The position numbers and the translations under genes are program-made. Of a stretch of 59,492 nucleotides of DNA, positions 6,766-58,961 are shown one piece after another. The DNA lies in NCBI GenBank assembly GCA_944363605.1, contig CALVUM010000003.1:1-59492 (forward strand), in the 5' to 3' direction. Within the stretch, counting starts at the first letter, position 1. Each line of letters starts with the position of its first letter. The notes beneath the pieces are model-generated. The model worked only from the letters and a program-made list of their open reading frames with translations. It had not been told where the DNA came from and did not search any database. Source of the stretch: an uncultured Bacilli bacterium. Lineage in GTDB: Bacteria > Bacillota_I > Bacilli_A > RF39 > UBA660.

Positions 6766-8298
6766 TCAATTTTCAGCAAGCTTCTTCGGAATATCCAACC
6801 TCATAAAAATAGGTACTGGTTCTAAAACATAATATTCTTCATTTTCTAAATATCCAACATCTAAATTATTTGAAGCAATTTGTCTTAAAATTTCAGCCGA
6901 AGTATCAGGTAAATAGGGAGATAAGAAAATTGCACAATTTCTTATTCCTTCAAGCAAATTATAAAGTACCGTCTCTAACCGTTCTTTTTTCTCCTCTTCC
7001 TTAGCTAAACTCCATGGCATAGTGTCATCAATATATTTATTACTTGCTCGTAATGTTTCAAAAATTTCATCAATAGCAAGACCAATTTCCAACTTTGCCA
7101 TCTTTTTCTCTACCCGTTCTTCTAAAGAATTGATACTCTCTATATAAGAACTATCTACTTCATGAGATACAAATCGATTTAAAACTTTGCCATCAAAATA
7201 TTTATTGGCCATCGATATAGTTCGATTTACTAAATTTCCTAAAATATTAGCCAAATCACTATTAATTCGTTCCATAATAAGCTCATAAGTAATCGTACCA
7301 TCACTTGCAAAAGGAATTTCATGTAAAACATAATAACGAATCGCATCAACACCAAATAAATTTACCAAATCATCCGCATACATAATATTTCCTTTACTCT
7401 TACTCATCTTATCATTATTCATAAGTAACCAAGGATGTCCAAATACTTGTTTAGGTAACGGTAAATCCAAAGCCATCAATAAAATAGGCCAATAAATCGT
7501 ATGAAAACGAATAATATCTTTTCCAACTAAATGTAAATCAGCTGGCCACCATTTTTTAAACTCATCAGTTTGGTTATCTACGTCATAACCAATATTAGTA
7601 ATATAATTAGATAATGCATCTATCCAAACATACACAATATGCTTATCATTAAAAGGTACTTTTATTCCCCAGTCAAAAGCTGTTCTAGAAACACACAAAT
7701 CTTGTAAACCTGGTTTTAAAAAATTATTTAACATTTCATTTTTCCGTGATTCTGGTTGAATAAATTCTGGATGAGTTTCAATATACTCAATTAATTTGTC
7801 CTGATATTTAGACATTTTAAAGAAATAAGATTCCTCACTTTTCTTGGAAACTTCTCTACCACAGTCTGGGCACTTTCCATCCACTAACTGCGTATCTGTC
7901 CAAAAAGATTCACAAGGTGTACAATACCATCCCTCATATTTATCTAAATAAATATCTCCTTTTTCATATAACTTTTGAAAAATGTGTTGAACAACCAATT
8001 TATGATGTTCGTCTGTCGTCCGAACAAATTTATCATAACTAGTATTCATAACATCCCAAATCCGTTTTATTTCCCGGGAAATATTATCCACATATTCTTG
8101 AGGACTTAACCCAGCATCTAAGGCTTTTTGAGCAATTTTTTCACCATGTTCATCAGTTCCCGTTTGAAAATATACATCAAATCCTTTTAATCTTTTATAA
8201 CGAGCAATTGCATCAGCCAAAACAATTTCATAAGTATTACCAATATGAGGCTTTCCCGAAGCATAAGCTATTGCTGTTGTAATATAATATTTTTCCAT
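6766..8298 (-). CDS. metG: methionine--tRNA ligase (short form)
   Basis: 510 aa; HIGN (HIGH) motif, CPDCG zinc knuckle, KMSKSKGN (KMSKS) motif. Confidence 0.95.
   Translation of the reverse strand: MEKYYITTAIAYASGKPHIGNTYEIVLADAIARYKRLKGFDVYFQTGTDEHGEKIAQKALDAGLSPQEYVDNISREIKRIWDVMNTSYDKFVRTTDEHHKLVVQHIFQKLYEKGDIYLDKYEGWYCTPCESFWTDTQLVDGKCPDCGREVSKKSEESYFFKMSKYQDKLIEYIETHPEFIQPESRKNEMLNNFLKPGLQDLCVSRTAFDWGIKVPFNDKHIVYVWIDALSNYITNIGYDVDNQTDEFKKWWPADLHLVGKDIIRFHTIYWPILLMALDLPLPKQVFGHPWLLMNNDKMSKSKGNIMYADDLVNLFGVDAIRYYVLHEIPFASDGTITYELIMERINSDLANILGNLVNRTISMANKYFDGKVLNRFVSHEVDSSYIESINSLEERVEKKMAKLEIGLAIDEIFETLRASNKYIDDTMPWSLAKEEEKKERLETVLYNLLEGIRNCAIFLSPYLPDTSAEILRQIASNNLDVGYLENEEYYVLEPVPIFMRLDIPKKLAEN
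8068..8083. other. Noc-binding-site-like palindrome TATTTCCCGGGAAATA (inside metG)
   Basis: Perfect 16-bp palindrome containing the 14-bp B. subtilis NBS consensus ATTTCCCGGGAAAT; encodes ..NISREIK.. of MetG. Confidence 0.75.
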
Positions 8299-8334: not shown

Positions 8335-8356
8335 AATTATTTCCCGGGAAATAATT
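8335..8356. other. NBS-like palindrome (22 bp) in the metG leader
   Basis: AATTATTTCCCGGGAAATAATT, located between the T-box terminator U-run and the metG RBS. Confidence 0.75.
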
Positions 8357-12957: not shown

Positions 12958-13668
12958 TCAATTCTTAAACAAATTTTGATAAGTCTCTAGTCCGCCTATA
13001 CATATAGGTGGTGCAATTTTACAACCAAATTTCCCATTTTTCACTAAAGTTACTAAAACAATAATTGGAGCTTGCTCTATTTTAGAATGAACAAACTGTA
13101 TTCTTTTAATACCTAAACCATATTGATAAGCATAAACCATAATTTCATCTAACCGATCAGGAACATGAACTAAAAAGAATCTTCCTTTGTCTTTTAACAA
13201 ATAACTTGCCATCCCAATTAATTCTTTTAAATTGATAGTTATCTCATGTCTTGCAATACTTTTTAAAGAATTTTGATTCACAAAATCAGGATTATGATAT
13301 TTAAAATAAGGTGGATTAGACAAAACAACATCAAAATTATTTCCCGGGAAATAATTTCCCAATTCCAAAACACTATCTTCAATAATGGAAACAGCATCTT
13401 CCATATCATTTTCTCTAATAGAATCTCTAGCTAAATCCGCAATTTCTTTTTGAATCTCCACTCCAATAATTTCTTTATGGTATTTATAATGTAACAAAAT
13501 AGGTATAACACCATTTCCAGTACACAAATCAATTATTTTCTCATCACTCTTACGAATCGTTGCATATTCAGCAAGTAAAATAGAGTCTAACGAAAATTTA
13601 AAACCATCTTCATATTGATAAATTTTTAAATTTGGATAATCAAACAACCAATTAAGCTGCTTCTTCAT
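12958..13668 (-). CDS. SAM-dependent N6-adenine methyltransferase, TrmN6/YabB-like
   Basis: 236 aa; DLCTGNG SAM motif and NPPYF catalytic motif; follows yaaT as yabB does in Bacillus. Confidence 0.7.
   Translation of the reverse strand: MKKQLNWLFDYPNLKIYQYEDGFKFSLDSILLAEYATIRKSDEKIIDLCTGNGVIPILLHYKYHKEIIGVEIQKEIADLARDSIRENDMEDAVSIIEDSVLELGNYFPGNNFDVVLSNPPYFKYHNPDFVNQNSLKSIARHEITINLKELIGMASYLLKDKGRFFLVHVPDRLDEIMVYAYQYGLGIKRIQFVHSKIEQAPIIVLVTLVKNGKFGCKIAPPICIGGLETYQNLFKN
13334..13357. other. NBS-like palindrome (24 bp) inside the methyltransferase gene
   Basis: AAATTATTTCCCGGGAAATAATTT; encodes ..NYFPGNNF.. Confidence 0.75.
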
Positions 13669-16848: not shown

Positions 16849-17154
16849 TTACATCAAACCATCTAACATTCCAGCATATTGTCCCATTTTTGACTGAAAT
16901 TCTTTATCAATTTTTTGAATAGCATCCTTAGTCGCTAATACAATAAAATCCTCTAATAACTCAATGTCTGAAGCATCTAACCCATCTTTTTCAATTTTGC
17001 ATCGAACCATTTCCTTTTTTCCATTTAATGTAACTTCGACAAACTCATATTTCCCGGGAAATAATTGAGCATTAATTTCCTCTTTCTTTTTTTGTAAATC
17101 TCTCTGCATTTTTTGAGCTTGAGCCATTATATTTTGCATATTCATTGTAAACAC
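16849..17154 (-). CDS. ybaB: nucleoid-associated protein YbaB/EbfC
   Basis: 101 aa; between dnaX and recR; MQKMQ..LQKKKEE... pattern. Confidence 0.88.
   Translation of the reverse strand: MFTMNMQNIMAQAQKMQRDLQKKKEEINAQLFPGKYEFVEVTLNGKKEMVRCKIEKDGLDASDIELLEDFIVLATKDAIQKIDKEFQSKMGQYAGMLDGLM
17048..17063. other. NBS-like palindrome (16 bp) inside ybaB
   Basis: TATTTCCCGGGAAATA; encodes ..LFPGKY.. Confidence 0.75.
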
Positions 17155-19287: not shown

Positions 19288-19305
19288 TTTTCCTCCATAA
19301 AAAAA

Positions 19306-19377
19306 GTGCACACAAACAGGGATTGACGTGGCTGCTATCTTCCGATCCTGACCAGATTACAATATATTTGTTGCACG
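19306..19377 (-). ncRNA. ffs: small SRP RNA (scRNA/ffs), short Firmicute/Mollicute-like form
   Basis: The minus strand reads GTGCAACAAA...CTGGTCAGGATCGGAAGATAGCAGCCAC...TTTGTGTGCAC. The middle matches the domain IV consensus GGUCAGGUCCGGAAGGAAGCAGCC, the termini base-pair, and a T-run follows. Adjacent to tadA/dnaX as scr is in B. subtilis. Confidence 0.6.
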
Positions 19378-19423
19378 TATAAAGAATAACAAAAAAAACT
19401 TAAACTTGCAACAAAAATTACAA

Positions 19424-19439
19424 TGTTTCACGTGAAACA
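19424..19439. other. parS site 1 (TGTTTCACGTGAAACA)
   Basis: Perfect 16-mer; embedded in a 32-bp perfect palindrome at 19416-19447. Confidence 0.85.
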
Positions 19440-19536
19440 TTGTAATTAAAAAGTTATATATTATCAACATACGCATAATAAAAAAATTTTAATTAAATCT
19501 TCTTAAAAATATCTAAAAACAAAGTTATACACTATA

Positions 19537-19552
19537 TGTTTCACGTGAAACA
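19537..19552. other. parS site 2
   Basis: Perfect 16-mer; embedded in a 28-bp palindrome at 19531-19558. Confidence 0.85.
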
Positions 19553-19565
19553 TATAGTTACAAAC

Positions 19566-19587
19566 AATTATTTCCCGGGAAATAATT
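19566..19587. other. NBS-like palindrome (22 bp) inside the parS array
   Basis: AATTATTTCCCGGGAAATAATT; the 16-bp core starts 16 nt after parS site 2. Confidence 0.75.
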
Positions 19588-19793
19588 TTATATTTAATTT
19601 ATTTATGATTAATTTTTTGCTTTTATTAATCTAAATACGTTTTATAATAGATTTTAAAGACAATTAATTATTAAAAACAAACAAATAGTAATATTTAAAA
19701 AATTAAGATTTAACAACCTAGTATATAAAGTAAAATATACAAGATCCTAGTTTTTTTCATAAATTAAATGTATATATTTTTATAAAAATTCAA

Positions 19794-19809
19794 TGTTTCA
19801 CGTGAAACA
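19794..19809. other. parS site 3
   Basis: Perfect 16-mer; 18-bp palindrome at 19793-19810; followed by TTATCCACT (19812-19820). Confidence 0.85.
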
Positions 19810-19989
19810 TGTTATCCACTTGAAATAACAAAATATTAAATTTTAAAATATATTTGAAATAAAATGACAATAATAGCAAACATATACATTTTTTATTACA
19901 GTAATTCTAAAATATTTTATGAAATTAAATTAATTTTAATAATTTCTTTTAAAATAAAGATAAATATTAACTGAAAAATAGACTATCTA

Positions 19990-20005
19990 TGTTTCACGTG
20001 AAACA
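19990..20005. other. parS site 4
   Basis: Perfect 16-mer; 24-bp palindrome at 19986-20009. Confidence 0.85.
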
Positions 20006-20152
20006 TAGAGTTACGAACAATACTTTTAGAGAATTACCAATTTAAAAGTAGTTAGAAAAAAGTTGATTATTTTAAATTAATAAATTATTTTTTTTGAGAT
20101 TAAAAGAGTAATTATTAAAGCTATTTTACATTTTATAATAATTTAACAACAA

Positions 20153-20168
20153 TGTTTCACGTGAAACA
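20153..20168. other. parS site 5
   Basis: Perfect 16-mer; 26-bp palindrome at 20148-20173; overlapped by TTATTCACA (20172-20180). Confidence 0.85.
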
Positions 20169-20364
20169 TTGTTATTCACAACGTTGCATTATTAAAATAA
20201 GAAAAATTTTATAAATAAAAACGCTTTGAAGTGTTAGATCATAAGAGTAGTATCAAAATAATGAAAGAAGCAAAATTATAAACTTTTGAATTAATCAAAA
20301 TATCTATTAAAAACAACAAGTCATTTCTACAAATATTTAAAAAACAAAAAATTATCTTTATTTA

Positions 20365-20380
20365 TGTTTCACGTGAAACA
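20365..20380. other. parS site 6
   Basis: Perfect 16-mer; 20-bp palindrome at 20363-20382. Confidence 0.85.
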
Positions 20381-20425
20381 TAGGTTATAAACATTTAAAA
20401 AAATCACTTACAAAAAAAATAGCAA

Positions 20426-20441
20426 TGTTTCACGTGAAACA
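20426..20441. other. parS site 7
   Basis: Perfect 16-mer; 28-bp palindrome at 20420-20447; 17 bp from the gyrA stop codon. Confidence 0.85.
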
Positions 20442-20458
20442 TTGCTAAAATAATTTAA

Positions 20459-22903
20459 TTAACTATTTTCTTCAGCGGCAATAACTTCCTTTTCCTCATG
20501 ATCTACTATACTAATAGTAGCAACACTTTGATTCTCTTTTAAATTAATTAAACGAACACCTTGAGTTACTCGACCTAAAGTTGATACCTGATTTAAAGGT
20601 AAACGAATCAACATACCAGTATTTGTAATAATAACTACATCATTATTCTCCCCTACTAGCTTAAATGAAGCAATGGAGCCATTCTTATCGGTAATATTTA
20701 AAGCTTTTACACCTTTACTTCCTCTACTAGTCTCACGATATTCACGAACGTTTGTTTGTTTTCCGTAACCTTTCTCGGAAACAATTAGGATCTTATCATC
20801 ATCTGTTGCTATCTCAGCACCAATACAAACATTTCCGTCTAGATTAATTCCACGAACACCACTAGCTGTTCGTCCCATAACCCGAATCTCATTTTCATTA
20901 AATTTAACCATTCGTCCAGCACTAGAACCTAACAAAATCATATCGTTACCCTTAGTCTTACGAACACTAATTAACTCGTCATTCTCTCGTAAAGTAATAC
21001 ATATTTTACCATTAGTACGAATATTTTCAAATTCTTCTAATGAAGTTTTCTTAACAATACCTTTGCGAGTGGCAAATAATAAGAATTTAGATTCATCATC
21101 TTTCATAATCTTAATCATTGAATTAATCGACTCATCCTTATCAATTTGTAATAAGTTGATAACTGGAATTCCTTTAGATTGACGACTAAATTCTGGAATT
21201 TCATAGCCTTTTAAACGATAAACCTTTCCCTTATTTGTAAAGAATAAGACATAATCATGAGTTGATAAGTTAAGTAGATGCTCAACAAAATCCTCCTCAT
21301 TGGTTGCCATACCTTTTACTCCAACACCACCACGGTTTTGCGATTTAAAAGTATCAGTAGTTGTTCTCTTAATGTAACCTTTATTTGTTAAAGCGATCAT
21401 AACATTTTCCTCTGGAATTAACGATTCATCTTCAATAAATTCAATAGCTGTCATATCAATATTAGTACGACGCTCATCAGCGTATTTATCCTTAATTTCT
21501 AACAATTCCTCGCGAATAATAGCTAAAACCTTCTCATCGCTTGCTAAAATTGCTTTATATTCTTCGATTTTCTTCAATAAATCAGCTAATTCAGCTTCAA
21601 TTTTTTCACGTTCTAAACCTGTTAAACGACGTAAACGCATTTCAAGAATCGCTTCTGCTTGAATTTCATCCAACCCAAAACGATTAATTAAACGTTCCTT
21701 AGCAACATCATCTGTATCCGATTCACGAATAGTCTTAATAACCTCATCAATATGGTCTAAAGCGATCTTTAAGCCTTCTAAAATATGTACTCGAGCTTCT
21801 GCTTTTCCTAAATCAAATCGAGTTCTTCGAATAATAATTTCCCTTTGATAATCGATATATTTAGCAATAATATCTTTTAAAGGTAAAACAACTGGCGATT
21901 TTTGATCGATCATTAAAAAATTTATACCATAAGTTGTTTGTAACTGCGTATGCTTATATAAATTATTTAAAACGACATTAGCATTCGCATCTCTTTTTAA
22001 ATAAATGACTACTCGAACTGGATTTTCCAAATTCGATTCCTCATGTAAATCACTGATACCATCCAAAATCTTGTCGCGAACTAACTCACCAATTCGTGAC
22101 TGAAATTCAGCTTTATTAACCTGATATGGTAACTCAGTAACAATAATCCGCGATTTTCCATTATGCTCTTCAATTTCAACCTTACCACGAATCGTGATAC
22201 TGCCCCGACCCGTTTCATAAGCTTTTTTAATACCACTATTACCTAAAATAGTCGCACCCGTAGGAAAATCAGGACCTTTAATATACTGCATTAAACCCAC
22301 AGTATCAATTTCAGGATTATCAATATAAGCTACACAGCCATCAATAACCTCGCCCAAATTATGTGGAGGAATATTCGTAGCCATACCTACGGCAATTCCC
22401 ATCGTACCATTTACTAAAATGTTAGGGAATCTACTTGGTAAAATTTCTGGTTCTTTCTCAGTTTCATCAAAATTTGGCGTAAAATCAACAGTATCTTTAT
22501 TAATATCTCGTACCATTTCCAAAGACAATTTCGAAAGTCTTGCCTCCGTATAACGCATTGCAGCCGCGCCATCGCCATCCATATTACCAAAATTTCCATG
22601 TCCATCAACAAGCATATGCCGAAAACTAAAAGGTTGAGCCATCCGAACCATCGCATCATAAATTGAAGAGTCCCCATGTGGATGATATTTTCCCATTACA
22701 TCTCCGACAATACGAGCACTTTTACGATGCGGTTTATCAGGTGTATAACCAGATTCATACATAGAATACAAAATACGTCTATGAACCGGTTTTAAACCAT
22801 CTCTAAGATCTGGAAGAGCTCTGGCCATAATAACACTCATCGAATATCGAATAAAGGAATTTTCTACTTCATTAATAACATTATTTTCAACAATTCTATC
22901 CAT
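20459..22903 (-). CDS. gyrA: DNA gyrase subunit A
   Basis: 814 aa; [11 protein letters not shown], active-site AAMRYTE region, C-terminal beta-pinwheel repeats. Confidence 0.97.
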
Positions 22904-26008: not shown

Positions 26009-26470
26009 CTACATAACAGTTTTTTTTGCAGTTTTTCGCCCTCTTAAAGCACTTTCTAACCGAGTTGCTCGAAGAACTTGATTATCAATAATTCCATAAG
26101 AGGTTTTAACCGCAATTTTTATTCCATTTTGAAAAACAATAAACATAATATCTCCATCACGGTAATAGGATTTAATATATTTTAACCGAATCCAATTACT
26201 ATTTTCTCTTGTATTAGAAGTTGGAAAAAAAATAATTTCTTTAGATTCTTCTACAATAATAGGTGCCTTATAATTAACACCTATCATTGACTCAGTTCCT
26301 TTTCGTCTTCCATCAAGTGAACTTCCAAAATATCGACAGCTATCTTCCATAATTTTATTAGAAGGTTGTTCAATGATATAATGATCATTAAGCTCATATA
26401 CCTCCGAATAATTCTTATCAATAGATAAAATTGCTAAAGTTTCATCATTAATTTCATACTGCGTCTGCAT
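26009..26470 (-). CDS. comK: competence transcription factor ComK family
   Basis: 153 aa; YEINDETLAIL, DSCRYFGSSLDGRRKGT, KAPIIVEE, IIFFPTSNTR, NW, FQNG...SYGIIDNQVLRATRL align block by block with B. subtilis ComK (recalled). Confidence 0.8.
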   Translation of the reverse strand: MQTQYEINDETLAILSIDKNYSEVYELNDHYIIEQPSNKIMEDSCRYFGSSLDGRRKGTESMIGVNYKAPIIVEESKEIIFFPTSNTRENSNWIRLKYIKSYYRDGDIMFIVFQNGIKIAVKTSYGIIDNQVLRATRLESALRGRKTAKKTVM

Positions 26471-27752: not shown

Positions 27753-27861
27753 TGTGGATAATGTGTATAACTTTTAAAATGTCTTTAAAATAAACAAAAA
27801 TTGTCGAATTTTCATGTTTATAACTTTCCACATCGTAAAAAGATATCCACATCATATTTTA
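27753..27861. promoter_or_regulatory. DnaA-box cluster in the dnaA-dnaN spacer (oriC part 2)
   Basis: Perfect box (TGTGGATAA, i.e. TTATCCACA) at 27753-27761, abutting TGTGTATAA at 27762-27770 (8/9). CTTTCCACA lies at 27834-27842 and ATATCCACA at 27853-27861. Confidence 0.8.
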
Positions 27862-29240: not shown

Positions 29241-29289
29241 GAAACCACCCCGCTTTAACATTTATCAACATTATTCTACACTTTTTTCT

Positions 29290-29534
29290 TTCAATTTAAA
29301 AGACTAAAATGTATACTAACACACTATTCACAAGTTATCAACAAAATAAATATCGATAAATAAAAGAAAAAATATAGTTATCCACATTATGAACATTTTT
29401 ATTTTTTCATAAATGTGCATTAGTGAATAATGTGTAAAAAACTTATCCACAGCATGTGAATATGTTCATAACTAATAAAAAAAGTAGATTTATAAAGAAA
29501 AAATTCTTGAAAAGTAAGTGGATAGTTATACACA
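29290..29534. promoter_or_regulatory. DnaA-box cluster upstream of dnaA (oriC part 1)
   Basis: Perfect TTATCCACA at 29378-29386 and 29443-29451; TTATACACA at 29526-29534; several 7/9 boxes (TTATCAACA, CTATTCACA). Confidence 0.85.
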
Positions 29535-31759: not shown

Positions 31760-31783
31760 TAATTATTTCCCGGGAAATAATTA
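31760..31783. other. NBS-like palindrome (24 bp) between jag and mnmE
   Basis: TAATTATTTCCCGGGAAATAATTA, in the intergenic region just after the jag stop codon and a T-run. Confidence 0.75.
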
Positions 31784-38014: not shown

Positions 38015-39238
38015 GTGAATACAGAACAAAAGGTACTACAAGTAGCTATTGAAGATATAATACCTAACCGATTTCAACCACGTTTAGCATTTGATGAAGA
38101 AGGATTAAAAGAATTATCTGAATCAATTAAACAGCATGGAATTATTCAACCTTTAGTACTAAGAAGATTAGGGAATAAATATGAAATTATTGCTGGGGAA
38201 AGAAGATTTAAAGCGGCAACAATGGCTGGATTAAGACAAGTGCCTGCAATTATTTCCGATATTGATGATAATAAAAGTGCTGAAATTGCTTTAGTTGAAA
38301 ATATTCAAAGAAGAAATCTGACGCCTATCGAAGAAGCAAAATCTTACAAGAATCTTTTAGATCGAGGCTATATGACCCAAGAACAATTAGCAGAAAAAAT
38401 GGGAGTTAGCCAAAGTTCTATTGCCAACAAACTACGTCTTTTAAATCTAGCACCTGAGGTACAAGATGCTCTTTTACAAGAAAAAATAAGTGAAAGACAT
38501 GCCAGGAGTTTATTAGTTTTGCCTAAAGATGAACAAGCAGACTGGCTTCAAAAAATACTAACTAAACGTCTCACTGTTCGTCAATTAGATTTAGAAATAA
38601 AAAAATCAAAAGGCGAAGTAAATGAAGATGTTCCTTTAGTAAATATTTCCCCAGATGTAGATAAAATAATTAACAATGCTAGTGATATAAATCAAAAAGA
38701 ATCAACGAGAGAGGAAAAAAATATGGAATTTGAACAAAAAGATAATATTTCTGAGATAAAAGTAGAAGAACCAAAAAATATTCCGAATAAATTTTTTAAC
38801 TTTTTAGAAGATGAAGCTGCAAACATGCAAATGATTGAAACACCAACGCCTATTCAAAATAATAGTTCAATGAATGAAATTGAAGTTTTAGATGATTTAG
38901 GATCTTCATCTCCAGAAACTTCTAATAATTTACAACAAGAAGAAACCATTATGCCGTTTTTATTTTCAAACTCTCAAGTTCAAGAAAATAATAAAATAGA
39001 AGAAATAGAAGAAAAAACAACTGAAAAAATTGTGGATCCAATGGATTCAGTTATTAAATTAGATCCAAACTATCAACAAATGGTTGAAGAAGAAAAAGGA
39101 ATAGATTTAAAATCAGCCATTAACGAAGTCCGTGAATTAATTGAAAATATGAAAAAACAAGGATTTCAAATTTCTTTAGATGAGATAGATTTAAATGAAA
39201 ATTATCAAATGACAATTAATATTAAAAAAAATGATTAA
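38015..39238 (+). CDS. noc: ParB/Noc-family CTPase-type DNA-binding protein with Noc-type specificity residues and a long acidic insert
   Basis: 407 aa. IIPNRFQPR and GERRFKAA form the ParB N-domain/CTP motif. The HTH SQSSIANKLRLLNL...KISERHARSL matches B. subtilis Noc (GQSTIANKLRLLKL...KITERHARAL) rather than Spo0J (SRPHIANHLRLLTL...LSMGHGRTL). The C-terminus SAINEVRELIENMKKQGFQISLDEIDLNENYQMTINIKK resembles the Noc C-terminus. Sits at the canonical position after rsmG. Confidence 0.8.
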   Translation: MNTEQKVLQVAIEDIIPNRFQPRLAFDEEGLKELSESIKQHGIIQPLVLRRLGNKYEIIAGERRFKAATMAGLRQVPAIISDIDDNKSAEIALVENIQRRNLTPIEEAKSYKNLLDRGYMTQEQLAEKMGVSQSSIANKLRLLNLAPEVQDALLQEKISERHARSLLVLPKDEQADWLQKILTKRLTVRQLDLEIKKSKGEVNEDVPLVNISPDVDKIINNASDINQKESTREEKNMEFEQKDNISEIKVEEPKNIPNKFFNFLEDEAANMQMIETPTPIQNNSSMNEIEVLDDLGSSSPETSNNLQQEETIMPFLFSNSQVQENNKIEEIEEKTTEKIVDPMDSVIKLDPNYQQMVEEEKGIDLKSAINEVRELIENMKKQGFQISLDEIDLNENYQMTINIKKND

Positions 39239-39566: not shown

Positions 39567-41522
39567 ATGAATATGAGTAAAAGAAAAAAAGTGTATTTTA
39601 TTTTGGGATTATTAGGAGTAATAAGTTTAATAGGAATAAGCTATGCGTTATGGACAGTTACATTAAGTCAACAAAGTGAAAATAAAATTGCCACGAGTTG
39701 TCTAAATATTGAAATTTTAAAAGAAAGTGAAGAAATTGTTTTAGAAAATGCTTTTCCTATAACAGATGAAGAAGGAATGAAAACAACACCTTATACATTT
39801 ACGATAAAAAATACCTGTGATACATTCATTGATTATGAAGTGTCTTTGGCAATGTCAAATGCAACGACTTTAAATAGTAAGTATGTAGCAGTTGTTCTAG
39901 ATTATAATGAAATCAAAGCATTAGATACCTATGAAAGTACAACTATCGATGGATATAAAGAAGGAAGAATACTTCAAAAAGGAAGTTTATCTGGGGGAGA
40001 TGAAGTAACCTATAATTTAAGACTATGGCTAGACGAAGATATAACAACAAATGATCCTGTATTTAATACAAAATTTCAAGGAAAAATCCACATAACAGCA
40101 ACAATCGGAAGTTATAGTCCAGTAGAACAAGGATTTACAAAATTAGCCGATGCCATATTAGTAAATGAATATCAAAGTACCGATGTGGAAAGTGCAAAAG
40201 CAAGAATACAAAGTAAACAAGTTCCAGATTTTAGTAAAACAGCTCCGATCACGATATGGAATGAAATTCATAGTGAAAATTTAACTACAAAAACGTTAAC
40301 AACAGCTAGTGAAACTTTATTAGAAAGCGAAGAAGCAACCAAAGAAGTAGTATACCCAATGTTATTTAAAAATTATACTTTTGATACAGAAACGGGTATG
40401 TATGGTTTAACTGATGGAATAGTTGTAGATCCTACTGAAATAAATGATTATGATACAACAGATTATTATGTATGTGGAACTGATATTACTAGAAATGCAA
40501 ATAAAGAAATCATTTTGACTAATACTTCCTCTTGTTCAACAATGTATACAATAAAATCCGTAGTGAATAAAAAGGAAGGAACAACGACATTGAATGGAAT
40601 AGAAACACCATTAACAATACATAGTCTATCAGTCTATCCATATACTCAAATAGAAAGAGAAAGTGATAAATCCGATAAAGGATTATATGTCATGACAGAT
40701 GATTATGGGGAAAGCTATTATTTTCGAGGAAATGTAAAAAATAACTATGTATATTTTGCTGATGTTTATTGGAGAATCATTAGAATCAATGGCGATGGAA
40801 GTATAAGAATTCTATATGCTGGTCGTACAAAAGATGCAACAAATGATGAATTAAGTATAGGAAAATCCGCATTTAATCTTGAAAAATCAAGCCCAGCATA
40901 TGTCGGATATATGTATGGAAATATAATTAATGATAGTTATGAACAAAACATGTCAAATGAAGTAGATAGTACAATTAAAACAATAGTAGATGCATGGTAT
41001 GAAGAAAATATAGTATCCAGAGGATTGAGTGAATATATAGCCGATCCAGGATTTTGTAATGATCGTGAACTACTAATTGGAACAGGAATAGATTCAAGTG
41101 CTTTTAGTCAATTTAAAGGATATGAAAGATTATCAAATTTTACTCCTAGTTTGCAATGTCAAAATATAACTAGAGATTTATTTACCACAAGTACATCAAA
41201 TACTGGAAATAAAGCATTGAGATTTCCAATAGGGTTAATAACAAATGATGAATTAATAATAGCAGGTTTAAAAATTACTACTTTAAATCACTTAAATTAT
41301 TTATATAGCGGAACTAATTATTGGACAATGACTCCAAATAGCTATGATGTCAGTATTGGTTCAGCAGGTGTTAGAAGAGTGTATAGCGATGGTGGAATAT
41401 ATAATGGAGCAGTTAATTCACCATTAAATAATGTACGGCCAGTTATCAACTTAAAGCCAAATGTAGAAATTTCTGACGGCATCGGAACAGCAGAAAACCC
41501 ATTTATGATAAAAACAGTATAA
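39567..41522 (+). CDS. large secreted or membrane-anchored protein of unknown function
   Basis: 651 aa; basic N-terminus plus hydrophobic segment (KRKKVYFILGLLGVISLIGISYALW); Thr/Asn-rich extracellular body; C-terminal YWTMTP...VRPVINLK...GTAENPF motif; divergent from the XRE gene. Confidence 0.4.
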   Translation: MNMSKRKKVYFILGLLGVISLIGISYALWTVTLSQQSENKIATSCLNIEILKESEEIVLENAFPITDEEGMKTTPYTFTIKNTCDTFIDYEVSLAMSNATTLNSKYVAVVLDYNEIKALDTYESTTIDGYKEGRILQKGSLSGGDEVTYNLRLWLDEDITTNDPVFNTKFQGKIHITATIGSYSPVEQGFTKLADAILVNEYQSTDVESAKARIQSKQVPDFSKTAPITIWNEIHSENLTTKTLTTASETLLESEEATKEVVYPMLFKNYTFDTETGMYGLTDGIVVDPTEINDYDTTDYYVCGTDITRNANKEIILTNTSSCSTMYTIKSVVNKKEGTTTLNGIETPLTIHSLSVYPYTQIERESDKSDKGLYVMTDDYGESYYFRGNVKNNYVYFADVYWRIIRINGDGSIRILYAGRTKDATNDELSIGKSAFNLEKSSPAYVGYMYGNIINDSYEQNMSNEVDSTIKTIVDAWYEENIVSRGLSEYIADPGFCNDRELLIGTGIDSSAFSQFKGYERLSNFTPSLQCQNITRDLFTTSTSNTGNKALRFPIGLITNDELIIAGLKITTLNHLNYLYSGTNYWTMTPNSYDVSIGSAGVRRVYSDGGIYNGAVNSPLNNVRPVINLKPNVEISDGIGTAENPFMIKTV

Positions 41523-56053: not shown

Positions 56054-56128
56054 TTTAGGTATTTCTTTTTTAAGCAAAAATATGGTATAATTGCTTACAG
56101 TAAACAGCAAAAGAAAAGAGTGTTTGAA

Positions 56129-56830
56129 ATGATAAAATTTATAGTGGTAGAAGACAACAAAACAATTCAAGAAAAGATTAAAAAATTATTAGTAAAAATA
56201 AGTATTAGCCTTAATCAAGATTATGAAGCTAAATATTTTGAAAAATATAATAAAGAGCTTCAACAAGAAATTAATGACCAGACACAAAGAAAAGTGTATA
56301 TTATGGATATTGAATTAGAAAACAGCATTAGTGGTATTGAAGTGGCTCAAAAAATAAGAGAAAATGATTGGGATAGCGAAATCATTTTTGTGACTAGTCA
56401 TGATAAAATGTTTGAAACTGTTCATAGAAATATACTTGAAGTATTTGATTTTATTGAAAAATTTCTAGATATGGATAAAAGATTAGAAGAAGATATTTTA
56501 AAAATAATAAATAAAAAATACGATAAGAAAATTCTAAAAATTAATGGAAATAATGTTGAATTAGAATTACATATGAAAAACATTTTATATATAGAAAAAG
56601 AAGATAAAAAGTGTATAATTCATGCATGCGATAATGAGTTTAAAACAAGTTTAACATTAGAAAAATTATTGGAACTACTAGATGAACGTTTTGTTAGAAC
56701 TCATAAAAGTTGTATTGCTAATAAAGATAGAATGGTAGAAAGAAACTATTCAAAAGGTTATTTCATATTAGATACAGGCGAAAAAGTAGAATTACTTTCA
56801 AAAAAATATAAGAAAGAGATTGAAAAATGA
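56129..56830 (+). CDS. LytTR-family response regulator (AgrA-like)
   Basis: Receiver domain (IVVEDN...MDIEL) plus C-terminal LytTR domain (...IHACDNEF......FVRTHKSCIAN); likely start at the ATG at 56129. Confidence 0.85.
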   Translation: MIKFIVVEDNKTIQEKIKKLLVKISISLNQDYEAKYFEKYNKELQQEINDQTQRKVYIMDIELENSISGIEVAQKIRENDWDSEIIFVTSHDKMFETVHRNILEVFDFIEKFLDMDKRLEEDILKIINKKYDKKILKINGNNVELELHMKNILYIEKEDKKCIIHACDNEFKTSLTLEKLLELLDERFVRTHKSCIANKDRMVERNYSKGYFILDTGEKVELLSKKYKKEIEK

Positions 56831-58080
56831 TACTTGAAATTATAATCTTAACTCTTCTTCAAATATCAATGATTGTTGCTGTTGAAGCATTTTCAGATCA
56901 AAAAATAAAAAACATAAAGTTATTGATTATAAGCATAATAATTTATGATTTGCTATATTATTATCTGCTTAAATATATTCCGGCAGAATTAAATACTATA
57001 GTTTCAATTTTATATACAACAATTCTTATTAAAATTCTACTTAAATTAAACAATAAAAATTTATTATTCTATATGATTATTATATGGATTTTAGGTATTA
57101 TGGTAGATATAGGAACAATGCTAGCTATGAATTTTACAAATGTGACTTCTAGGATAACAGATTTAAATAAAGATTTTTTTAAATCAATAAGTACAATAAT
57201 TATGATTACTTTTTATTTCGTATGTGCGCACAGTAAATACATAAAATCTAAAATATTAAAATTAAAAAGGTTTACTCAAAAAATAAACATTTCTTACTAT
57301 GTTTTTATAGCCTTATTAATCATATATTTTACTCTGGGCGCAGTGTGTTTAAATGAAATGAATAATATAGAAAGCATAATTTTTATTTTGTTTATAGCCA
57401 TAACCTGTTTTATTATCTTCATAATATTTATAGTACAGCAATTTCAAATAATTTCACTTAAGGAAAGTGTACATTTATTAGATAAAAATAGTGAATTCTA
57501 CATTAAATTGATAGATGAATATCGCATTTTAAAACATAATTTAATTGGAAATTTAAATGGTGTAAAAACAGTTGGAAATAAGAAAACAAAAATTTTAATT
57601 GATGATTTAATTAAAGAATATAGCTCTATTTTAAAATTGCCTAAAAATTTTAAGGAAATTCCAACAGGAATTAGTGGATTAATTTATGAAAAAATTTATT
57701 CAACAAATAATAAAGAACTAAAGATAAAAATTGAAAATAAATTAAAACATAATATCATAGAAGTGCTTACTGCAAGAAAATATAATCTTATTTGTGAAGC
57801 ATTAAGTGTGACATTAGATAATGCGTTAGAAGCAACAATAAAAAGCAAAGAAAAAATAATATATTTAGAATTTATAGAAGATGAAGAAAATATATATTTT
57901 AAAATAATTAACACATTTACTGGAAATATCGACATAGACAAATTAGGTACAAAAAATTATACATCAAAGAAATATGGTCATGGTTTAGGATTATTTTCTA
58001 TTTTAATAAAAAAGGATATTACTTTGGCAACTTCTATAAAAGATAATAAATTTATAAATGTAGTTACAGTACAAAAATGA
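56827..58080 (+). CDS. AgrC-like membrane histidine kinase (GHKL, HPK10 type)
   Basis: 417 aa; about six N-terminal TM segments, H-box-like RILKHNLIGNL, N-box LDNALEA, G-box GHGLGL; ATGA overlap with the regulator stop. Confidence 0.85.
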   Translation: MILEIIILTLLQISMIVAVEAFSDQKIKNIKLLIISIIIYDLLYYYLLKYIPAELNTIVSILYTTILIKILLKLNNKNLLFYMIIIWILGIMVDIGTMLAMNFTNVTSRITDLNKDFFKSISTIIMITFYFVCAHSKYIKSKILKLKRFTQKINISYYVFIALLIIYFTLGAVCLNEMNNIESIIFILFIAITCFIIFIIFIVQQFQIISLKESVHLLDKNSEFYIKLIDEYRILKHNLIGNLNGVKTVGNKKTKILIDDLIKEYSSILKLPKNFKEIPTGISGLIYEKIYSTNNKELKIKIENKLKHNIIEVLTARKYNLICEALSVTLDNALEATIKSKEKIIYLEFIEDEENIYFKIINTFTGNIDIDKLGTKNYTSKKYGHGLGLFSILIKKDITLATSIKDNKFINVVTVQK

Positions 58081-58133
58081 TAAAATCTTAGAATATTAAA
58101 TAAAGTTTTATTTCTAAAAAATAGTCATAAAAA

Positions 58134-58163
58134 AACTCTCAAATTATTAAAATGAGAGTTTTT
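58134..58163. terminator. bidirectional rho-independent terminator
   Basis: AACTCTCA/TGAGAGTT stem flanked by an A-run and a T-run, between the kinase (+) and the agrD-like peptide gene (-). Confidence 0.75.
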
Positions 58164-58164
58164 C

Positions 58165-58278
58165 TTATAATAAATCTTTATCTGCTATAGGTTCATCCCA
58201 AAAGAACATTAAGCAAGCAGATGAAATTGATCTTGAAAAAAGATTTGCAATTCCAGATAACATATCTACGAAAAACAT
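58165..58278 (-). CDS. agrD: AgrD-like autoinducing peptide precursor (37 aa; not in the ORF track)
   Basis: Hand translation gives MFFVDMLSGIANLFSRSISSACLMFFWDEPIADKDLL. It has an amphipathic N-leader, Cys22 plus four residues (CLMFF), then an acidic DEP tail. AGGAAG RBS upstream; lies directly downstream of agrB. Confidence 0.75.
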   Translation of the reverse strand: MFFVDMLSGIANLFSRSISSACLMFFWDEPIADKDLL

Positions 58279-58322
58279 AGTACACTTCCTTTCTAGTAAT
58301 TTGTTTAAATTTATATAAAAGT

Positions 58323-58961
58323 TTAAACCATAGTTTTTTGAAAATTTTTATAATTATTAAATGTAGTACCAGTTATTTTATAAGTCAAAGGATTTATAGA
58401 AATACTTTCCATTAATAATGCATATATTATTGTATTGTTCAAAAGAACGTGAAAATCATAAATATACAAAACTAAATAAACTAATAAAAGAAATATGGAT
58501 AAAACTTTTGCTCTAACCCTTTTTTCTTTATGAATCAACGGTCTTGCAGGGGTATCTGCTGGAGCAAAAAGTAAAAATGAAAGAAAACCAAATATCCAAA
58601 TAATTACAGCAACTGAATTAGGTATTACAAGATATTTAATTAATAAACAACCACCTAAATATACAGGTAAAGTTGTTATCCAACATTGTAAACTTGTTTT
58701 AGCATGAAGTCCAAAACCGTAGAGTCGCATCGTAGAATATACAAAAGATAATAATAATAGTTCCAAAAACAAATTAAATAAAAGAGCTAGTATAAATAAT
58801 ACAATTGTTTTTGTTATGAAATTATAAAATGCTTCTAATCCATAACGCATCTTTTTTTCTTCTATAGTGCTAAGTTTTCTCTTTGATTTAATTAATTGTA
58901 TTGATTTTTCTATAAATCTTTTTTTCACACTACCACTACCCAACAGAAACAAGGATATCAT
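58323..58961 (-). CDS. agrB: AgrB-family propeptide-processing membrane protease
   Basis: 212 aa polytopic protein; RLYGFGLHAKTSLQCW contains the conserved AgrB His and Cys. Confidence 0.85.
   Translation of the reverse strand: MISLFLLGSGSVKKRFIEKSIQLIKSKRKLSTIEEKKMRYGLEAFYNFITKTIVLFILALLFNLFLELLLLSFVYSTMRLYGFGLHAKTSLQCWITTLPVYLGGCLLIKYLVIPNSVAVIIWIFGFLSFLLFAPADTPARPLIHKEKRVRAKVLSIFLLLVYLVLYIYDFHVLLNNTIIYALLMESISINPLTYKITGTTFNNYKNFQKTMV

Follow-up and report, generated by a model that had tools for sequence, protein, structure and literature searches.

The DNA analyzed here is a 59,492-nt stretch from an uncultured Bacilli bacterium (RF39; UBA660), covering positions 1–59,492 of contig CALVUM010000003.1 in assembly GCA_944363605.1; the whole 59.5-kb stretch is referred to as the window. 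Its subject is an array of seven parS sites, palindromes matching the consensus of ParB-binding sites, in the spacer between gyrA (20459–22903, minus strand), which flanks the array upstream, and ffs (19290–19387, minus strand), the gene of the small signal recognition particle (SRP) RNA, which flanks it downstream and was recognized by an Rfam match. The 18-mer ATGTTTCACGTGAAACAT occurs exactly seven times in the window, always in this spacer, and no match to it arose in 100 dinucleotide-preserving shuffles. At all seven sites the 16-bp palindromic core agrees perfectly with the B. subtilis consensus TGTTNCACGTGAAACA, and the next-best match to the core in the window carries three mismatches. 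The spacer is 1,071 bp long, with a GC content of 17.9% (15.5% once the sites are left out; 28.8% for the whole window), and its longest open reading frame (ORF) encodes 39 aa.

The GC skew changes sign at about 29.3 kb, which places the replication origin inside the window. A cluster of DnaA boxes marks oriC upstream of dnaA (29262–29534), and a second cluster lies between dnaA and dnaN (27753–27851). Measured from these clusters and from the skew switch, the array is 8.8–10 kb away from oriC. These results bear out what the original prediction, an earlier reading of this DNA, had said of the array: an 18-mer in seven copies and unique in the window, a core equal to the Firmicute parS consensus, an AT-rich spacer without an ORF of 60 aa or more, and a position about 9 kb from oriC. 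The core coordinates, spacings and flanks it gave were all correct on recount.

Counted from the ffs side, the sites occupy 19423–19440 (site 1), 19536–19553 (site 2), 19793–19810 (site 3), 19989–20006 (site 4), 20152–20169 (site 5), 20364–20381 (site 6) and 20425–20442 (site 7), with centre-to-centre spacings of 113, 257, 196, 163, 212 and 61 bp between successive sites. All 126 positions of the seven 18-mers are identical, whereas the intervening spacers can be aligned neither with one another nor with those of the closest relatives, which points to selection acting on the sites themselves. No tandem repeat was found in the window array; the sites are thus not recent copies of one another. 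Several other possibilities were considered for the spacer and rejected: a hidden non-coding RNA (Rfam returns only ffs, even at E ≤ 1), a hidden small ORF (none exceeds 39 aa), promoter enrichment (10 promoter-like sites vs 15.9 expected), and helical phasing of the sites (Rayleigh test on 119 spacings, p > 0.15). The parS spacings peak at 100–110 bp, and between species the spacers share no sequence except a second motif, described below.

A GyrA-based scan of species-representative genomes yielded 35 loci of the same clade and 45 more distant ones, mostly from Lachnospiraceae. The clade consists of gyrA-related loci in metagenome-assembled genomes (MAGs) labelled as uncultured gut "Bacilli", "Firmicutes CAG:582", "Tenericutes" or "Erysipelotrichaceae", with GyrA identities of 64–89% and GC contents of 22–31% (n = 35). 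Within ±10 kb of gyrA, we searched for parS and near-parS sites, the latter defined by up to two mismatches. The comparison of the gyrA–ffs spacer among relatives favoured the original prediction: each of the 35 clade loci has parS or near-parS sites, one to eight in number, no further than 2 kb downstream of gyrA, in the gyrA–ffs–tadA–dnaX neighbourhood, and none in the remainder of the ±10 kb. The 45 loci outside the clade have none, except for a single two-mismatch match in L047. The roughly 640 kb of clade sequence flanking the noc-type gene described below is likewise free of parS. Over the approximately 1.3 Mb of origin-proximal clade DNA covered, parS was seen nowhere but in the arrays.

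The gene order gyrA–array–ffs–tadA–dnaX is kept across the clade. In five relatives (L025, L032, L030, L020 and L007) the array lies partly or wholly in the tadA–dnaX spacer, which indicates that the conservation concerns a chromosomal location and not any given spacer. Where clade sites deviate from the consensus, most changes affect positions 5/12 (T>C or A) and 1/16, which are the ones that are degenerate in the B. subtilis consensus as well. Taken together, the identity with the consensus, the proximity to the origin, the non-coding setting, the position kept in 35 genomes and the confinement of variation to tolerated positions argue strongly that the array would act as a functional ParB-loading centromere.

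A second palindrome accompanies the parS sites. The Noc-binding site (NBS) of Bacillus, ATTTCCCGGGAAAT, is present in six perfect copies in the window, vs 0.28 expected. One of them, overlooked in the earlier reading, lies inside the array at 19570–19583, within the 18-bp palindrome TTATTTCCCGGGAAATAA and 32 bp from parS site 2, centre to centre. The others are found at 8069–8082, 8339–8352, 13339–13352, 17049–17062 and 31765–31778. The window thus holds about one NBS per 10 kb near the origin, most of them inside genes and mostly embedded in TTATTTCCCGGGAAATAA. Across the clade, the density of NBS is 1.50 per kb in the arrays vs 0.047 per kb outside them, and NBS are present in the array at 17 of 36 loci.

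In six relatives (L021, L025, L022, L026, L032 and L030) parS and NBS alternate at roughly 1:1 within tandem units. Such layouts include those of L021 (10107–10557), where each 126-bp unit contains one parS and one NBS, and of L025 (13110–13749), with a unit of 82 bp and an array total of seven NBS and eight parS. The distance between parS and NBS centres in such tandem-unit relatives clusters at about 23–38 bp and about 55–58 bp. In the literature searched, no description of parS/NBS interleaving was found. A search of a viral contig collection for the pair parS-N(5–35)-NBS returned nothing, and the idea of composite parS–NBS pairs on mobile elements was rejected on that basis.

Rightward from the origin, the window encodes rnpA, yidC, jag, mnmE, mnmG, rsmG and three further genes, followed by a ParB-family gene on the plus strand (38015–39238). 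It is the only ParB-family gene in the window and occupies the ancestral noc/soj/spo0J position after rsmG. The 407-aa product, a CTPase/HTH protein with ParB_N and HTH_ParB domains, has the Noc model TIGR04285 as its best NCBIfam match (281.8 bits, under the cut-off of 315); the generic ParB model scores 179.9. The closest solved structures are those of Geobacillus Noc (7NG0 and 7NFU). Read from structure alignments, its specificity residues are Q173, K179, N184 and R201. According to Jalal et al. (PMC7383237), these positions read QKKR in Noc and R..G in ParB; the same deep mutational scan found that parS-specific variants always carry R173, that a single lysine at 179 or 184 is enough to bind NBS, and that most variants with dual specificity carry T or S at 201. 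The Q, K and R residues are kept in all clade orthologues with a readable HTH motif. At position 184, the K of classical Noc is replaced across the clade by N, T, S, G, Q or A. Judged by Q173, K179 and R201, the protein is a predicted reader of NBS rather than of parS.

Classical Noc has an N-terminal membrane-targeting helix, which is absent from this protein. Its ORF begins about four residues ahead of the first Noc-aligned residues, and about 20 residues of the Geobacillus and B. subtilis Noc chains are missing. A low-complexity linker of about 150 aa, longer in some orthologues, contains the conserved motif PNKFFNFLEDEAANMN, which recurs in the orthologues L082–L142 and may represent a relocated amphipathic or partner-binding peptide.

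The presence of a single ParB-family gene near the origin, in the window and at all clade loci examined, raises the question of whether this one Noc-type protein could serve both parS and NBS by a dual or broadened specificity; the array would in that case be a one-protein centre for organizing the origin, with neither Spo0J nor ParA taking part. The location of the gene at the ancestral position after rsmG, the physical interleaving of the two site classes in relatives and the departure of position 184 from the classical Noc lysine are all compatible with such an arrangement. Two observations speak against it. The clade keeps Q173 together with R201, while parS binders invariably have R173 and dual variants mostly T or S at 201 (PMC7383237). 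Moreover, both site classes are kept perfect and yet differ in distribution, as parS is confined to the array and NBS is also dispersed; this is the pattern expected of two separate readers. We therefore regard a single shared reader as improbable.

The minus strand is the sense strand of both gyrA and ffs, and on this strand four of the seven sites form terminator-like hairpins, vs 0.4 expected in shuffles. Stem stabilities at the sites range from −11.6 to −15.7 kcal/mol. Site 7, located 11 nt past the gyrA stop codon, folds into a 12-bp stem (−15.6 kcal/mol, z −4.8) followed by U8, and is likely the intrinsic terminator of gyrA. Site 1 folds into a 14-bp stem (−15.2 kcal/mol) followed by U5 and lies 4 nt upstream of a putative −35 box of ffs (TTGCAA, 19406–19411); the layout of site 1 with a TTGCA promoter element is shared with the relatives L004 and L006. 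From these hairpins and U-tracts, the two end sites plausibly double as a gyrA terminator (site 7) and an ffs insulator (site 1).

At five of the seven sites, the palindrome continues for at least 3 bp beyond the 18-mer, each time with a different flanking sequence (p ~5e-6). The extended palindrome spans 19416–19447 (32 bp) at site 1, 19531–19558 (5 bp per side) at site 2, 19986–20009 (3 bp per side) at site 4, 20148–20173 (4 bp per side) at site 5 and 20420–20447 at site 7; that of site 3 is not extended. Similar arm extensions, complementary but not conserved in their flanks, are seen in 44 of 98 clade sites, and symmetric extended flanks are also visible in parS arrays of Clostridia. Selection for the ability to fold into hairpins or cruciforms might account for the extension, as might the mode in which the copies originated.

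Such stable stems, their terminator-like folds and the covariation-like differences between their arms could be taken to mean that the palindromes are primarily structural or RNA elements, i.e., terminators, processing hairpins or repeats resembling repetitive extragenic palindromes (REP), with the match to parS being incidental. The invariant part of each element is, however, exactly the 16-bp parS consensus, and the variation across 35 genomes follows ParB recognition rather than stem stability, as in the case of T>C at position 5, which is left uncompensated on the other arm. U-tracts occur only at sites 1 and 7, the sites co-occur with the motif of a second ParB-family protein, and, contrary to REP elements, no copies are found elsewhere. 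We consider a primary RNA role very improbable.

DnaA-box-like 9-mers abut sites 2, 3, 5 and 6 (19525–19533, 19812–19820, 20172–20180 and 20385–20393, respectively). The one next to site 3 reads TTATCCACT; the one next to site 5, TTATTCACA at 20172–20180, is the only perfect DnaA box of the four. In the clade, such 9-mers adjoin 29 of 156 parS sites vs about 7 expected, in some lineages only. A DnaA-titration cluster was considered and rejected: the array holds five DnaA-box-like 9-mers vs about 2.3 expected, a weak excess, and the adjacency in the clade is limited to some lineages.

In contrast to the window, some relatives carry arrays that are true tandem repeats. The array of L023 consists of 5.2 copies of a 107–109-bp unit with 91% identity, and tandem-repeat arrays are also found in L021 and L025. 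At least nine MAG contigs (L002, L003, L008, L013, L017, L022, L012, L019 and L018) stop inside the array or just past it, 0.2–1 kb downstream of gyrA, and these stops fit assembly breaks induced by repeats, which appear to interrupt short-read assemblies at the origin region. Near the contig end of L018, at about 13294, a parS is centred in an inverted repeat with arms of 64 bp on each side of a 14-bp core, which could be a real palindrome or an assembly artefact.

Young repeats of the kind seen in L023 and the coincidence of arrays with contig ends might suggest that the array is left over from the centromere of an integrated plasmid or phage, or that it is a neutral tandem repeat, in either case with no present function. 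Against this, the array is flanked by core genes in conserved synteny with no mobile-element genes nearby, it occurs in all 35 species-level relatives, and in the window the sites have stayed perfect while the spacers have diverged beyond alignment. The lack of parS–NBS pairs in the viral contig collection points in the same direction. A functionless remnant is, in our estimate, extremely unlikely.

We therefore favour the reading that the gyrA–ffs spacer is an origin-proximal chromosomal centromere, in which the parS sites would be loading gates for ParB, the NBS would serve the Noc-type paralogue and the end sites would act in addition as hairpins. We consider this reading probable. Directly visible in the sequences are the identity and position of the parS and NBS, their conservation in the clade, the kind of variation that is tolerated, specificity residues of the Noc type and folds resembling terminators.

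Several points weigh against it. ParB and ParA genes were sought by Pfam scans of the 60 window ORFs of at least 80 aa and by tblastn with Spo0J and Soj on all loci. Neither a canonical ParB (R173/G201 type) nor ParA/Soj was detected in the 59-kb window or in the 10 kb past its left end (contigs stop about 0.3 kb past its right end), nor within ±10 kb of gyrA in the 35 relatives or ±10 kb of the noc-type gene in 61 clade contigs; in all, no ParA or canonical ParB is encoded within about 40 kb to the left and about 30 kb to the right of oriC. The only ParB-family protein of the examined DNA being of the Noc type, no ParB expected to bind this parS sequence, as the original prediction presupposed, was found there. 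In addition, all functional steps are carried over by homology with B. subtilis, Caulobacter and similar systems; binding by ParB, the loading of clamps, the recruitment of SMC and cooperation with Noc are inferred, as is a cognate ParB itself. One low-GC contig with soj-spo0J and seven parS (L150) was considered as the missing clade locus and rejected: its relatives are labelled Clostridia, its sites have other flanking bases, and it contains no NBS. Nevertheless, without a reader, perfect parS arrays confined to one location would hardly have been kept in so many species, from which we infer that a canonical Spo0J-type ParB for the array is encoded elsewhere in the genome.

By analogy with characterized systems, the proposed centromere would work as follows. 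A ParB dimer would bind each parS, close as a CTP-bound clamp and slide onto neighbouring DNA, and seven loading gates within 1 kb would multiply the loading rate. The expected outcome is the formation, some 9 kb from oriC, of a single dense ParB nucleoprotein complex, which would recruit SMC-ScpAB and thereby organize and segregate the origin region. In vitro, B. subtilis ParB condensed DNA with 7, 13 and 26 parS copies and not with 1, 2 or 4; the authors of that study concluded that additional parS sites raise the rate of clamp loading and that sliding is blocked by bound proteins acting as roadblocks (PMC8299390). Given this effect of copy number, seven gates in 1 kb by oriC should produce a strong partition complex and SMC-loading site. 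ParA would perhaps not be involved, none being encoded near the origin. The NBS of the array, interleaved 1:1 with parS in relatives, would recruit the Noc-type paralogue encoded at 38015–39238, so that both ParB-family CTPases could assemble on one platform. Noc is known to nucleate at NBS and to spread in a CTP-dependent manner (PMC8429893), and in B. subtilis, Spo0J and Noc act jointly under a block of early replication (PMC6852036). As a side role, the end palindromes would fold into RNA hairpins with U-tracts, by which site 7 may end gyrA transcription and site 1 may insulate the ffs promoter.

In B. subtilis, parS sites are dispersed through a wide domain around the origin, for the most part within genes. 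The window array resembles this Spo0J-parS system in its identical 16-bp core, its proximity to the origin and its variable positions, and differs from it in packing seven sites into one 1-kb spacer that is not beside soj-spo0J. The same mechanism of CTP-gated clamp loading, spreading and SMC recruitment would be expected (PMC7333895, PMC8299390). A parallel in layout is Myxococcus xanthus, where a 3-kb stretch about 4 kb upstream of parA contains 22 parS (PMC3899335); this, too, is a chromosomal origin-proximal array of equal density (about 7 sites per kb). The M. xanthus array, however, adjoins parAB, belongs to a GC-rich, ParA-dependent proteobacterium and has no Noc sites.

Comparable arrays were also detected in MAGs of low-GC gut Clostridia, at soj-spo0J–[parS array]–cvpA loci (L150, 4533–5744; L170, 6970–8628; L172, 7041–7392). 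They share with the window three to seven perfect or near-perfect parS, an AT-rich, ORF-poor spacer of 0.6–1.8 kb and symmetric flanks. Unlike the window array, they lie directly beside canonical soj-spo0J and contain no NBS, and the lineage is unrelated. Dense intergenic parS arrays are thus seen to recur in AT-rich gut Firmicutes, in this Clostridia lineage and in the clade of the window.

The centromere of the F plasmid, sopC, consists of 12 tandem iterons of 43 bp. Plasmid iteron centromeres resemble the present arrays in the packing of identical ParB sites and, for L023, L021 and L025, in being true tandem repeats. The window array differs in that it is not tandem, has no parAB operon nearby and lies in a core-syntenic part of the chromosome. 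The suggestion that the array looks more plasmid-like than chromosomal found no support in the comparison with M. xanthus (22 sites in 3 kb; PMC3899335), with the Clostridia MAG arrays and with the core chromosomal synteny of the locus itself. Given the M. xanthus and Clostridia arrays, a dense intergenic array is neither exceptional nor specifically plasmid-like.

With the Noc-NBS systems of Bacillus and Staphylococcus (PMC8429893, PMC7383237, PMC4331003), the window shares perfect copies of ATTTCCCGGGAAAT and a paralogue with Q173, K179 and R201. The differences are that NBS in B. subtilis are dispersed along the chromosome, no interleaving with parS being described for them, and that the window protein has no membrane-targeting helix, scores 281.8 vs the cut-off of 315 and carries the linker insertion of about 150 aa. 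A further parallel is offered by the ParB-parS systems without ParA in Streptococcus pneumoniae and Staphylococcus aureus (PMC7333895, PMC7022226). Here, too, the origin has no ParA gene in its vicinity. The system may thus be similar to theirs, and it would be expected to act mainly via SMC loading. Those two species have about 4–5 separate sites and an identified parB, while no parS-type parB was found in the examined clade DNA.

Origin-proximal clusters of parS are well known, with copy numbers from 1 to more than 20, and why this number varies and what drives the clustering are named as open questions in a review (PMC7333895). What is distinctive here is the combination of an array uncoupled from parAB, a fixed gyrA–dnaX locus, the mixing with Noc sites and a helix-less Noc type as the only origin-proximal ParB-family gene. 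The lineage provides a natural series: the number of sites varies between one and eight, the arrays include ones with diverged spacers and ones that are recent tandem repeats, and some hold parS alone while in others parS alternates with NBS. This whole series is available at one syntenic locus uncoupled from parAB and bears on both questions of parS number and clustering. Should the two ParB-family proteins share one kilobase for loading, each would be a roadblock or a partner for the sliding clamps of the other. The arrays also flag the origin region in MAGs and would account for the recurrent contig breaks just 3' of gyrA.

A more far-reaching proposal goes beyond the centromere reading, namely that parS and Noc sites are deliberately interleaved into a composite origin locus on which ParB and the helix-less Noc-type CTPase co-assemble, or where one Noc-type protein reads both. 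We consider this rather unlikely. If true, segregation of the origin and loading of SMC would be tied, without ParA, to nucleoid occlusion or to anchoring of the origin, and the locus would be the first natural case of two diverged ParB-family clamps on one loading platform.

The remaining gene content of the window is that of a typical origin region with a few additions. On the minus strand, leftward from the origin, dnaA, dnaN, comK, recF, gyrB and gyrA are followed by the array and then by ffs, tadA, dnaX, ybaB and recR. The comK homologue (26009–26470) is inserted between dnaN and recF, inside an otherwise canonical dnaA–dnaN–recF–gyrB–gyrA block. The sporulation genes yabG, spoVT, yabP, spoVG, spoIIR and spoIID are also present, which identifies the organism as a low-GC spore-former. 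Just 3' of the noc-type gene, past a small HTH gene on the opposite strand, a 651-aa protein is encoded (39567–41522) that has an N-terminal transmembrane or pilin-like segment and no match in Pfam or NCBIfam. Further to the right lies an agr-like quorum-sensing cluster (56120–58961) with a LytTR response regulator, a GHKL histidine kinase and AgrB; in related contigs, a 37-aa ORF is found beside agrB of this cluster.

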